Source: Escherichia phage vB_EcoM_IME392
Strand: one strand, 5' to 3'
DNA length: 64,000 nucleotides
Sequence record: MH719082.1
Below, piece after piece: positions 50,157 through 60,444 of the stretch. Position numbers and translations under genes: made by a program. Each line of letters opens with the position of its first letter. Position 1 is the stretch's first letter. The notes below the pieces were generated by a model that was not told the DNA's origin, did no database searches, and saw only the letters and a list, made by a program, of their open reading frames with translations.

Positions 50157-50333
50157 ATGTCTAGCAACGAACCATGGTTCAAGACTGGATTCGAAACAGA
50201 AATACCGGCAGTAGCGCCGGTAAACTCAATCTTCCAGTCCTTACAAGGTAAAAGATGGAGATTCGACGGCCAGGGATGGGTCGAAATAGAGTCACTACAG
50301 GTGGCTCTCCAGAGAAAACAGGCTCAGAAGTGA
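50157..50333 (+). CDS. small hypothetical protein (absent from ORF track)
   Basis: ATG at 50157 after TAAGGAGTAAAC; 58 aa MSSNEPWFKTGFETEIP... Confidence 0.35.
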   Translation: MSSNEPWFKTGFETEIPAVAPVNSIFQSLQGKRWRFDGQGWVEIESLQVALQRKQAQK

Positions 50334-50357
50334 GCCTTAACTAGGTAGGGGTATAAT

Positions 50358-51005
50358 ATGAGCGTTACACTTGACCAGCTGAAGAAGTTCCTCCCGACAA
50401 CTTCAACGGAAGTGCTGGAAAAGCTGCTACCCGCCATTAATACTACTATCGAGCGTTACGGTATCAATACCAATCGTCGTCTGCGCTATTTTATGGCGCA
50501 GACTGCCTTTGAAACTCGGGACTACACTAAGTTTGTGGAGTCCCTGTATTATACCTCTGCGTCTCGTCTGGTAGCTGTGTGGCCGAGTAGATTTACTCTT
50601 CGCGGTGAACCTGGTAAGCTTAATGCTAATGCTTACATACGCGACCCTGAGAAGTTAGCCAATCAGGTGTATGCTAATCGCATGGGTAACGGAACTCCAG
50701 CTAGCGGAGACGGGTATAAGTACATTGGCCGTGGAGCTATGCATCTAACTGGCAAAGCTAACTATCGAGAGGCCTCTTTGAGTATCTTTGGCGATGACCG
50801 TTTGGTAGAAGATCCAGAGTTAGTAGAGACGGATTTCGAAACGATCATGCTTACTGCAGGGTGGTTCTGGGATAAAAATAAATTAAATCAATTAGCAGAT
50901 CAGGACGCATTCACCAAAGTAACCCAGAAGATAAATGGGTCTGCTGCGACCGTACCTGACCGACTGCCTGTACTACGCAGAGCAAATCAGACTTTAACTC
51001 TTTAA
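50358..51005 (+). CDS. endolysin, GH19-like lysozyme/chitinase family
   Basis: 215 aa; YFMAQTAFETRDY and YKYIGRGAMHLTGKANY. Confidence 0.7.
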   Translation: MSVTLDQLKKFLPTTSTEVLEKLLPAINTTIERYGINTNRRLRYFMAQTAFETRDYTKFVESLYYTSASRLVAVWPSRFTLRGEPGKLNANAYIRDPEKLANQVYANRMGNGTPASGDGYKYIGRGAMHLTGKANYREASLSIFGDDRLVEDPELVETDFETIMLTAGWFWDKNKLNQLADQDAFTKVTQKINGSAATVPDRLPVLRRANQTLTL

Positions 51006-51019
51006 TATGGTGATCAATA

Positions 51020-51436
51020 ATGGACAATATCCTGGATGTGATCGATGGCACCAAGATTGATGAATATATCGCTCTTGCACTAGCCATCGTCGGCTTCGCA
51101 TCAGTCCTGGTGCAGGCTCTGGAGAAGATCGCTAAGATCACTCCTAATACTAAAGACGACGAATACATTGGGGTAATTAAGAAATACCTCGGTTATGCAT
51201 CGTCCATCTTAAACTTCGTCGCTCTGAACTTGCCTAAATCAACTGCCAGGGTAGATAAGAAATCCGCCGCTCAGGATGAGCAGAAAGTGCAGACCATGGA
51301 TAAAGCTAAGCAGGTTCTTTCCGACGTAGTCCAAACTCAGGATGATCCGCACCTAGTGAGTAAGGCCACCCAGGCTATTGATGCCCTTGATTACGGTAAG
51401 TCTCTGATCAAAAATCCAGAGGGTAAAAAGGAGTAA
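51020..51436 (+). CDS. holin candidate (single N-terminal TMD)
   Basis: hydrophobic IALALAIVGFASVLVQAL; next to endolysin. Confidence 0.4.
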   Translation: MDNILDVIDGTKIDEYIALALAIVGFASVLVQALEKIAKITPNTKDDEYIGVIKKYLGYASSILNFVALNLPKSTARVDKKSAAQDEQKVQTMDKAKQVLSDVVQTQDDPHLVSKATQAIDALDYGKSLIKNPEGKKE

Positions 51437-51439
51437 GGT

Positions 51440-51670
51440 ATGAAAGCTCTTACTCTTATTCTTCAGCTTATTACCCTACTCGTATCTGCTATGCAGACTC
51501 GTTCTCGGGAGAAGAAAGATGAAGAAATTAAAAATGACCCTACTGGCGCTTGGGAGTCTAAGTTTGGTAAGCTGCAACAGCCTACCGGTACAGATGCAGA
51601 CACCGAAGATAAGGTGCGACCGTCCACCGATAGCAGCGATAGCGGAAAAAGACGGGATCAGGATTCCTAA
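51440..51670 (+). CDS. i-spanin candidate (Rz-like)
   Basis: AAGGAG RBS; N-terminal TMD LTLILQLITLLVSAM; o-spanin ORF overlaps in another frame. Confidence 0.4.
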   Translation: MKALTLILQLITLLVSAMQTRSREKKDEEIKNDPTGAWESKFGKLQQPTGTDADTEDKVRPSTDSSDSGKRRDQDS

Positions 51671-51728
51671 CGCTGAATTAGCTAAATTGGTATCTTATAT
51701 AGATTGCCTAGAGAGCAATCAGAAGTGA
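51519..51728 (+). CDS. o-spanin candidate (Rz1-like lipoprotein)
   Basis: signal peptide plus lipobox MKKLKMTLLALGSLSLVSC; overlaps and extends past i-spanin. Confidence 0.5.
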   Translation: MKKLKMTLLALGSLSLVSCNSLPVQMQTPKIRCDRPPIAAIAEKDGIRIPNAELAKLVSYIDCLESNQK

Positions 51729-51738
51729 GGAATCTTGT

Positions 51739-52071
51739 ATGCGCGAGAGGGAAGAGTCTGAGTTCGGTGGACACCAACTCGATAGGCTAGCGAGACTTGA
51801 ATCTAACCAGAAGTTTCAGGGAGTAATACTTGATCAACTTATGGAGTCTTCTCGTAAGCAGACGGAGATATTAGCGGATATCCGTGAGCTAGTCGTTGCA
51901 CAGAATTTCATGTCTAAGAAGATTTCTGACCTTGAAGATGAGCAGGATGATCTAAGGAAGGAGATTAAGGAAGTAAATGACAAGATTAAATTCTGGAGTG
52001 GCGCGTTAGCAATTATTAGTGTACTGGTAGGATTGTTTAACGACGCCATCATCGGCATCTTTAAGCACTAA
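51739..52071 (+). CDS. coiled-coil protein with C-terminal TMD (holin/antiholin or lysis regulator candidate)
   Basis: 110 aa; GAGGAA RBS; C-terminal ALAIISVLVGLF. Confidence 0.4.
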   Translation: MREREESEFGGHQLDRLARLESNQKFQGVILDQLMESSRKQTEILADIRELVVAQNFMSKKISDLEDEQDDLRKEIKEVNDKIKFWSGALAIISVLVGLFNDAIIGIFKH

Positions 52072-52077
52072 ATAAAT

Positions 52078-52112
52078 GGGACTCACTCTATCACGAGTGA
52101 GTCCCATTTTTG
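52078..52112. terminator. bidirectional rho-independent terminator at the convergence point
   Basis: perfect 11-bp stem GGGACTCACTC/GAGTGAGTCCC, loop TATCAC, T-run ATTTTTGT on + and A-run upstream. Confidence 0.7.
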
Positions 52113-52123
52113 TGTAGATTAAT

Positions 52124-58902: not shown

Positions 58903-58911
58903 AATTATTCC

Positions 58912-59133
58912 TTATCTTTTCAGGACGTATTGTTTACATGGGCAATTCTTTACCTTCTTGCCAGATCCGCAGTAGCAATCTTCGTTAGCCTTACTACGCT
59001 TAATTACTTTCGGCTCTCCAGTAAACTCAGCCTCTTTCTTAGCATCCTTAGCTTTGTAATATTCCCAACTCGCCATCCAGACACCATCTAGACAGAGAGC
59101 ATTAATCTGTACGGGATTACTCCTCGTCATCAT
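58912..59133 (-). CDS. SEC-C-motif zinc-binding protein
   Basis: C-terminal CYCGSGKKVKNCPC; start at ATG 59133 after GGTGGAGG. Confidence 0.5.
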   Translation of the reverse strand: MMTRSNPVQINALCLDGVWMASWEYYKAKDAKKEAEFTGEPKVIKRSKANEDCYCGSGKKVKNCPCKQYVLKR

Positions 59134-59269
59134 CGGAGCCTCCACCCATGGCCTGCTCTTCGATTACCTGCATACAGGTAAGACATACTGGTTCGAGACC
59201 ATACTCAGACATATCGATAGGAGTCTCATCCTTCTGTTGTTTACACCAGGAGCACTTAAACTGTGGCAT
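59117..59269 (-). CDS. small zinc-ribbon protein (absent from ORF track)
   Basis: 50 aa MPQFKCSWCKQQ...CLTCMQ...; AAGGA upstream; overlaps neighbours by 14-17 nt. Confidence 0.35.
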   Translation of the reverse strand: MPQFKCSWCKQQKDETPIDMSEYGLEPVCLTCMQVIEEQAMGGGSDDDEE

Positions 59270-59450
59270 CTGTCATATCCTTAGTGATATAGTCAAACAG
59301 AATCTCTTCTCTAGATGTCCGCCAGCATTCATGGCCATCTTTCATGCAGATCAATTCGCTAGTCTCTTCATCATACTCCCAGTAACAGGAAGAAGAGATA
59401 GGACCATGAACCTGATTGTACATATGGATCATCTTTTCTTCAGTAGTCAT
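59256..59450 (-). CDS. small hypothetical protein
   Basis: start at ATG 59450 after AGGAGAAATT; motif copy 25 bp upstream. Confidence 0.45.
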   Translation of the reverse strand: MTTEEKMIHMYNQVHGPISSSCYWEYDEETSELICMKDGHECWRTSREEILFDYITKDMTDATV

Positions 59451-59474
59451 AATTTCTCCTAACAGTAGTTCTGA

Positions 59475-59509
59475 CACCTTAACAGCCTTTCGGCACCTAA
59501 AAAGAGCGG
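59475..59509 (-). promoter_or_regulatory. conserved leftward promoter-like motif, copy 11
   Basis: CACCTTAACAGCCTTTCGGCACCTAAAAAGAGCGG. Confidence 0.45.
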
Positions 59510-59510
59510 C

Positions 59511-59744
59511 CTACGAATCTTCCAGATCTACTAAGTATTCGATCTTGAGTCTGAATGGCCCCATATACTGGGTAATAGCCATAATCCTACCATTCTCCTT
59601 TTCCCATATCCATGGTGCTGGTGGCTTAGGAGTGTCCTTAGGAACATAACCCATATTGGCTAGTTTAGCTATTGCTACTCTTCCGACAGCCTTCCCACCA
59701 GCCTTAGACTGGGAGGTAATATACTCTTCAGTAACTACGATCAT
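59511..59744 (-). CDS. hypothetical protein
   Basis: 77 aa; GAGGAA RBS. Confidence 0.5.
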   Translation of the reverse strand: MIVVTEEYITSQSKAGGKAVGRVAIAKLANMGYVPKDTPKPPAPWIWEKENGRIMAITQYMGPFRLKIEYLVDLEDS

Positions 59745-59889
59745 TAATAGTGTTCCTCAACATAATCAAATAATAACTCCTAAACTAATGGACGTAGGAA
59801 CTACCGGCCCCTTATCTAATTTAACCAATTGGAGTGTAGCGGCGGCTGGCGGAGCCGCCGCGTACACGAGACTAAACTCCTCCGGAGAG

Positions 59890-60010
59890 TCTGACCTTGC
59901 CCACCCGAGCCTCCCCCTGGGATTCGCTCCCTAAAGCCACTTTGGGCTTTAACTCGCTCACCCTACGCGTGACGCAAGGTATACTACGTAGATGCCCCTA
60001 AGAATGTTGA
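59890..60010. ncRNA. structured non-coding element, copy B (paralog of 4905-5032)
   Basis: hairpin AAAGCC-ACTTTG-GGCTTT; closing helix ACCTTGC(59894-59900)/GCAAGGT(59974-59980); conserved CCACCCGAGCC and CTACGCG blocks. Confidence 0.35.
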
Positions 60011-60273
60011 GAGGGTATAAACCTTAGTGTAGTTCGCATCAGTCCCCACTAAGGTCTCGACAATACCTTCATCCTCTATCCAGTTCCGGACAATCTGAAT
60101 AGGGACACTACCTAACTATTCGTAATGCAACCATAGCCGGAGACGTAACTTAATCGTGCCCTATGTATACGCATTACTTAATGAGAGTATATAGTTGCTC
60201 TTCCCAGACTATCGAATCTGTTTTACGGAAGAGCAGCTATTAGGCCGTTAGGTGCCTTAATAGAACTCAGCTA

Positions 60274-60444
60274 TTAGTAAAGCTTCACTACTTTGTTAGA
60301 TACCCAGGACTGAGGGTTGGCAGATTCCACCATTTTGTCGTAGGCACGATCTGCTTGATCTTTAGTCTCAAATTCCGCAATTACCGAGTGAACTGATGGA
60401 GCATCCCGAGCAACAATACTACTTACAATAAGTAACTTAAACAT
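60274..60444 (-). CDS. small protein with signal-peptide-like N-terminus (absent from ORF track)
   Basis: ATG 60444 overlapping stop of upstream gene (ATGTTTAA); 56 aa MFKLLIVSSIVARDAPSVHS... Confidence 0.3.
   Translation of the reverse strand: MFKLLIVSSIVARDAPSVHSVIAEFETKDQADRAYDKMVESANPQSWVSNKVVKLY

Follow-up and report, generated by a model that had tools for sequence, protein, structure and literature searches.

Four small open reading frames (ORFs) of Escherichia phage vB_EcoM_IME392 (sequence record MH719082.1), located between positions 50157 and 60444 of a 64,000-nucleotide (nt) stretch referred to here as the window, are best explained as real, conserved coding sequences; for this explanation as a whole we estimate a probability of about 0.8. 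The four are ORF A (50157..50333, plus strand, 58 amino acids (aa)) and, on the minus strand, ORF B (57433..57606, 57 aa), ORF C (59117..59269, 50 aa) and ORF D (60274..60444, 56 aa). In the relatives of this phage, ORF B is the C-terminal domain, residues 162-218, of a 218-aa fusion protein with an N-terminal NADAR domain; in this genome a single stop codon separates the two parts. The four frames had been proposed earlier from the letters of the window (the original prediction), each with an ATG, an upstream Shine-Dalgarno (SD) motif and close packing with its neighbours, and all of this was borne out at the coordinates, strands and lengths given above. Each frame also fills a gap that holds no longer ORF. 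All of A-D are shorter than 60 aa, the default lower limit of mechanical ORF lists, which would explain their omission from the list made for the window. B and D add to known PHROG families, and A and C, which are orphans of the lineage, are already annotated in the closest relative. Taken together, the four frames amount to an ordinary gap in the annotation, with one detail of modest interest.

The closest relative in the phage collection, and the sole close one, is Escherichia phage EP_H11 (111 kb), which is 93.4% identical to the window over 50000-60600. Additional relatives were provided by the Logan/ENA contigs L007-L009. Further contigs (L010-L015) represent a diverged lineage with ~74% DNA identity (74-81% for the ORF A comparison); they span ORF A, not B, C or D, and end ~1 kb before the junction between B and the NADAR gene. 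No close relative was found in IMG/VR. Conservation of the frames and of their SD motifs in related phages was the check proposed in the original prediction, and both are kept in EP_H11 and the Logan/ENA contigs, for ORF A also in the 74-81%-identical lineage; all four reading frames are open in all relatives. In the EP_H11 record, A, C and D carry the label hypothetical protein, and B is covered by a 218-aa coding sequence (CDS).

The base differences between the window and EP_H11 are concentrated at third codon positions (32 of 39 over the four frames; binomial P = 5e-10). Codon comparison gave 10 synonymous and 4 non-synonymous changes in A, 8 and 2 in B, 11 and 0 in C, and 3 and 0 in D. 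For C, all 11 differences lie at position 3 (P = 6e-6). Comparison of ORF A with the L010 lineage (81% identical across the ORF) yielded 19 synonymous and 8 non-synonymous changes, with 26 of the 34 differences at position 3 (P = 3e-7). An open frame with an excess of third-position or synonymous differences was thus found for each of A-D, most weakly for D with its three changes. That the four are untranslated chance open frames in intergenic spacers would fit their short length (50-58 aa) and the confinement of A and C to the lineage. This explanation is effectively refuted, and in our estimate highly improbable, given the third-position bias overall and for C and A individually, the intact frame in each relative examined, the membership of B and D in protein families present in unrelated phages, and start/stop overlaps typical of coupled phage genes.

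The gene upstream of B (57625..58092, minus strand) encodes a NADAR-domain protein, listed with 155 aa (154 from the second Met) and identical to vB_EcoM_IME392 AXY86136.1 (154 aa). The truncated protein matches PF08719 with E = 1.1e-23 and 84.7 bits, and the fused form with 95 bits (cut-off 35.1). B is in frame with this gene, and only its TAA codon (57625..57627, read 57627-57625 on the minus strand) and 18 nt lie in between. At the position of the TAA, EP_H11, L008 and L009 have AAA (Lys155) and encode a single 218-aa protein; Lys is also present in P0017, P0018, P0020, P0021, P0023 and P0024. Beyond EP_H11, L008 and L009, there are five further database variants with Lys, one of which is a fragment across the junction. 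The stop is seen in one of eight sequences, that of this genome, and Lys in the seven relatives; P0024 is identical to the window protein apart from the stop codon. An outgroup sequence for the junction was sought, and none was present among the L010-lineage contigs or in IMG/VR. By parsimony, the stop would have arisen recently in this genome or be an error in its sequence. The proposal that B is an independent gene thus does not hold for the lineage, where the seven relatives have it as the C-terminal domain of the 218-aa NADAR protein.

The seven residues from the stop to the B Met, KLREELV, are no spacer and belong to the terminal helix of the NADAR domain, within which the truncated protein ends. 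Standalone phage NADARs (142-153 aa) end in the same helix, LLMxxRxEI (LLMKLREEI in Vibrio phage PVo5, also LLMRVRQEI), and the match to the Pfam NADAR model extends to position 162 of 163 in the 218-aa form and to 156 of 163 in the truncated form. The AlphaFold2 model of the fused protein (predicted local distance difference test (pLDDT) 86.5, predicted template modelling score 0.81) has a continuous helix, residues 148-164, across the stop position and B Met162; its top Foldseek matches were 2b3w (E. coli YbiA, E = 3e-8) and 8bau (NADAR, E = 2e-7). The SD-like GGGAGGAG (57613..57620, minus strand), located 8 nt (from its GGAGG core) before the B ATG at 57606, therefore corresponds to the codons Leu-Arg-Glu-Glu and is ordinary coding sequence in all relatives. 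The SD motif claimed for B is present; since the same bases encode Leu-Arg-Glu-Glu in the relatives, it is not in itself evidence of a separate gene. For sequence-only reading this is a caution: a textbook SD and ATG may be Leu-Arg-Glu-Glu...Met codons within a longer gene. On the other side of B, an intrinsic-terminator-like hairpin followed by a T-run (57404..57425, minus strand) lies 8 nt past the stop and is identical in EP_H11.

B encodes an acidic domain, in agreement with the original prediction (isoelectric point (pI) 4.4; 15 of 57 residues acidic), and belongs to phrog_519: residues 2-57 match positions 79-138 of the 143-position profile with E = 5.6e-19. B and the members of this family have in common the motif F-x-E-W-H...GGSAADAEAWR-x-DY-x-x-GKTP...DEWG. 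Free-standing phrog_519 proteins of 51-78 aa occur in about 200 phage records and resemble B in conserved core, motif and size. Examples are Vi01_151c of Salmonella phage Vi01 (64 aa), ARW58329.1 of the Stx phage ArgO145 (58 aa), a 51-aa protein of a Koutsourovirus, and 52-76-aa proteins of Enterobacter (e.g. P0025), Pectobacterium and E. coli prophages, all of which match phrog_519 positions 76-143. The stand-alone gene is found in Ackermannviridae and lambdoid prophages. Fusion to the NADAR C-terminus was seen in this lineage only; in the other members examined the domain is a separate gene. AlphaFold2 predicted a confident three-helix bundle for B alone (pLDDT 88.9), and because free-standing family proteins are common elsewhere, the free B domain appears to be a natural foldable unit. 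Searches with the B model found nothing significant in the PDB, and the matches in BFVD were uncharacterised small phage proteins only. A DUF551 identity for B was rejected: the CDS with this label shares just one base with the tblastn match, and B had no Pfam hit at E <= 1. In Klebsiella phage vB_KpnM_Bullseye_ER20 (L004, 1141-1377), the phrog_519 homologue is an intact 78-aa ORF that is unannotated, an overlapping 102-aa ORF in another frame being annotated in its place; the family has therefore been missed in other genomes as well.

A single AAA-to-TAA change would end the NADAR protein inside its last helix, and ribosomes terminating at the TAA could re-initiate at the ATG that follows GGGAGGAG, 18 nt further on. 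The order of stop, 18 nt, strong SD and ATG is a classic termination-reinitiation geometry, and on this ground B is probably made here as a free 57-aa protein, the form that this family takes in other phages. Alternatively, B may be a dead remnant: the nonsense mutation would inactivate the C-terminal domain of the fusion, and the 57-aa frame, untranslated or useless, would be intact because the mutation is very recent. The restriction of the stop to this genome among the eight sequences fits such a history, as does the nearest relative (P0024; L008/L009 in DNA), which differs at the junction in that base alone; the SD-like motif is accounted for by the NADAR coding sequence, and there would have been too little time for decay. 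However, the spacing of stop, strong GGAGG and ATG suits termination-reinitiation, and free family members that share its N-terminal boundary are frequent in other phages, so that we regard a dead remnant as possible but on the unlikely side.

The TAA at 57625-57627 could also stem from an error in sequencing or assembly, or represent a minority variant, in which case the true gene would be the 218-aa NADAR-B fusion and only three genes would be missing. Lys in all seven other sequences agrees with this, and the deposited 154-aa IME392 protein probably comes from the same assembly as the window and provides no independent confirmation. Single-base substitution errors are, however, uncommon in finished phage consensus sequences, and laboratory propagation on a host without the defence easily tolerates nonsense mutations in accessory anti-defence genes; we consider an error unlikely. 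Less conventional is the idea, which we rate as a long shot, that phage counter-defence or DNA-transaction enzymes have a portable partner in the phrog_519 three-helix module, which works fused or separate, with AAA/TAA as a natural switch between one chain and two. Such a module would aid NADAR, for instance as its tether to DNA or the replisome or as a binder of the DarT toxin. If true, this would be the first functional handle on a family found in ~200 sequenced phages, Vi01-like and Stx phages among them.

Several points weigh against the view that all four frames are genes and that B is made as a free protein in this genome. The case for translation of A-D comes from sequence analysis. 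Within-lineage support for D is weak, with three changes only, since the tract 59500-61700 is 96-100% identical to EP_H11. Neither A nor C has homologues beyond its phage lineage, which leaves their function unconstrained. The stop codon upstream of B is known from one assembly, and no other entry in the collection has the exact B or 155-aa sequence. The SD of B is dictated by the NADAR coding sequence and hence gives no independent evidence for a start site. Finally, no linkage of B to NADAR was found beyond the lineage among the neighbours of the homologues in Vi01, Bullseye, ArgO145, the Koutsourovirus and the Enterobacter prophages; the neighbours elsewhere are Ead/Ea22-like genes (in the lambdoid prophages examined) or unrelated genes, and the Ea22-like neighbour proteins showed no phrog_519 match.

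Phage NADARs strip DarT1-installed ADP-ribose from guanine in DNA and counter DarTG1 (PMC11257639; biochemistry in PMC11543638 and PMC11125620). Rescue from DarTG1 is known for T4 AdfN, NADAR-Bas32 and NADAR-Bas60 (PMC11257639). The window gene shares the PF08719 domain and the YbiA/NADAR fold with T4 AdfN/gp30.3 and NADAR-Bas32 of T5-like phages, its product is 42-44% identical to NADARs of T5-like phages, and alignment revealed the motifs ELVEGN...GDxFWG in common with standalone phage NADARs. The NADAR of this lineage would belong to the enzyme class acting against DarT1. The other phage NADARs examined are single-domain proteins of 142-153 aa, whereas the lineage form has the extra 57-aa three-helix domain and the window form truncates the last helix. 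Because the others are single-domain, the extra conserved domain is a lead on NADAR targeting, and unrelated phages also have the phrog_519 domain as a free protein of 50-65 aa. Among all features reported here, the NADAR-phrog_519 fusion and its single-base split are the only ones of which we have seen no description. One paper places IME392 among phages with a DNA polymerase resembling that of YerA41 (hypermodified thymidine) and tabulates genes of the dCTP-deaminase-like and dUTPase kind, which are also present in the window; this hints that the phage DNA may be modified, which would have a bearing on NADAR substrate specificity.

The original prediction noted that small acidic or zinc-ribbon early proteins are often host-takeover or anti-restriction factors. 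B, C and perhaps D would then be early factors such as DNA mimics or polymerase-binding inhibitors. B and C are both acidic (pI 4.4 and 4.05), B, C and D are part of a leftward cluster, made up of small overlapping genes, next to those for dUTPase, a dCTP-deaminase-like protein, an exonuclease and NADAR, and B is physically joined in the lineage to a known anti-DarT1 enzyme class (PMC11257639). Yet searches of Pfam, PHROGs, NCBIfam and PDB sequences or folds linked none of the four to a characterised takeover or anti-restriction protein. A relationship of B and C to DNA mimics of the Ocr/ArdA type was likewise not seen in profile, PDB-sequence or Foldseek searches, and A is clearly a late gene. 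Such a function for the four is a guess, and the takeover explanation seems to us rather improbable.

ORF C encodes a four-cysteine mini-protein with the arrangement CxxC-19 residues-CxxC, an acidic tail (GGGSDDDEE) and a pI of 4.05. The two CxxC pairs noted earlier (C6/C9 and C29/C32) are the same in all six variants, which differ in the tail and at a few other residues. The ORF overlaps each neighbour by 14 nt, has AAGGA 8 nt before its ATG, and is located within a stack of overlapping small genes of early/middle type. A tblastn search of 50,697 phage records found homologues of C in EP_H11 only, and a single 90% cluster, its own, was present among 5.8 billion. Comparison with named zinc-finger families gave no match to Pfam (E <= 1), PHROG or NCBIfam at permissive thresholds, and no PDB sequence at E <= 10. 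From its cysteine pattern, C is presumably a lineage-restricted, zinc-binding mini-protein. With two CxxC pairs ~19 residues apart in ~50 aa, it may resemble small four-cysteine phage proteins such as the P2 Ogr/P4 Delta activators, Mu Com and the TraR/DksA-type C4 fingers. It differs from proteins of this type by an acidic, not basic, tail, by its confinement to one phage lineage and by the absence of a family profile match; a nucleic-acid or polymerase target for C is speculation.

ORF D starts within the start/stop overlap noted in the original prediction, ATGTTTAA (8 nt), with GGAGGA upstream. Its product belongs to phrog_7747/15108, with full-length matches at E = 2.6e-8 (residues 2-56 against positions 5-63 of 63) and E = 7.6e-6 (residues 1-56 against 1-55 of 55), and is 45-48% identical to 63-aa proteins of Citrobacter phage Merlin (gp119) and a Kuttervirus-type Salmonella phage. 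These proteins share with D the pattern SVH-x-V...F-x-TK-x-QAD...KLY and have 3- and 4-residue insertions that are absent from D. The Merlin homologue is surrounded by small hypothetical genes and precedes the thymidine kinase gene, a setting unlike that of D, which is followed by a 529-nt ORF-free stretch. An exhaustive HMMER search of 1.84 billion representatives returned the own cluster of D and one weak match inside a 1498-aa protein, which was disregarded. The N-terminus of D had been called signal-peptide-like; judged by hydropathy and homologue alignment, it probably has no Sec signal peptide, as the best 19-residue Kyte-Doolittle mean is 1.34, too low for a membrane segment or signal, and the homologue segment YKILITSKCYAYGQGEA contains Lys, Tyr, Gly, Gln and Glu. 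The hydrophobic KLLIVSSIVA is probably the first strand of a mini-domain with a predicted beta-beta-alpha-beta layout, and D would be a cytoplasmic small alpha/beta protein of a family common to T4-like and Vi01-like phages.

ORF A (pI 8.2) is preceded by the SD TAAGGAG (50145..50151, plus strand), 5 nt before its ATG, which includes the TAA stop of the upstream gene and is kept in EP_H11 and L010. The upstream gene (47103-50147) encodes a 1014-aa DUF4815 tail protein, whose homologues are adsorption-associated/receptor-binding tail proteins of SPO1-, K- and A511-like phages (Herelleviridae-type); downstream lies a GH19 endolysin gene (50358-51005), past which the remaining lysis cassette genes are located. 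ORF A occupies the same position in all contigs, always in the order DUF4815 gene, A, GH19 endolysin; its EP_H11 counterpart is at L001 1658-1834. In contig L013, what seemed another gene upstream of A proved to be the usual tail gene interrupted by an internal stop. ORF A is separated by 9 nt from the upstream gene and by 24 nt from the endolysin gene, and no terminator was found between A and its neighbours; A is therefore a late gene, and the suggestion that it is expressed early fails for this position between a receptor-binding-type tail protein and the endolysin. A would be co-transcribed with the last tail gene, of receptor-binding type, and the lysis cassette, and its translation may be coupled to that of the tail gene. 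No transmembrane segment was detected in A, and it had no Pfam, PHROG, NCBIfam or PDB match. Homologues were found by tblastn in EP_H11 only, and the 5.8-billion-cluster search returned two 90% clusters, its own and one that is 86% identical. We infer with low confidence that A is an accessory in tail/baseplate assembly or in lysis.

Within the lysis cassette, a 69-aa ORF (51519-51728, plus strand) has a lipoprotein signal and the lipobox LVSC (MKKLKMTLLALGSLSLVSC...), and overlaps out of frame a 76-aa ORF (51440-51670) with an N-terminal transmembrane segment. The 69-aa ORF is intact in all relatives, and in the ~74%-identity lineage it shows 81% aa identity and an in-frame 2-codon deletion. 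It has a weak match to the Rz-like spanin family phrog_3198 (E = 0.0017), is unannotated in EP_H11 and uncalled in the Logan contigs, and probably encodes an o-spanin within this overlap, which would make it the fifth small gene to be missing. The annotation would accordingly gain four small CDSs and this overlapped spanin-like gene, with the NADAR gene flagged as interrupted relative to its relatives.

In the leftward cluster (minus strand), a dCTP-deaminase-like gene and a dUTPase gene are found at 53701-54324 and 54592-55062. EP_H11 has an additional 216-aa gene (L001, 5198-5848) between the homologues of window 53311-53688 and 53701-54324. This gene is missing from the window, has no Pfam match and accounts for most of the length difference between EP_H11 and the window in this region.

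The 529-nt ORF-free stretch between D and the next gene (59745-60273, minus sense) is G+C-rich with many hairpins. Across three relatives, the differences are concentrated in block-replaced, hairpin-sized segments and one hairpin loop; three sequences gave 3 compensatory pairs only. Its identity to EP_H11 is uninformative on constraint because it is common to the whole 59500-61700 tract. Minimum free energy z-scores are -2.5 for the minus strand and -3.9 for the plus strand; as a structured RNA the stretch had no Rfam hit, and ARAGORN reported a weak tRNA-like match at a relaxed threshold only. A module of ~76-100 nt from this stretch recurs with 82% identity at 4922-4994, in an ORF-poor tRNA region. 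This region (4680-6360, minus strand) comprises ~1.7 kb without convincing ORFs and contains a tRNA-Met (5645-5720) and a tRNA-Arg (6190-6265). Several tRNA 3'-half-like pieces, T-arm-like GGTTCGA(C/T)TCC followed by ...CACCA, were noticed by eye near 5630 and 5490; they may be remnants of decayed tRNA genes, or small RNAs of another kind.

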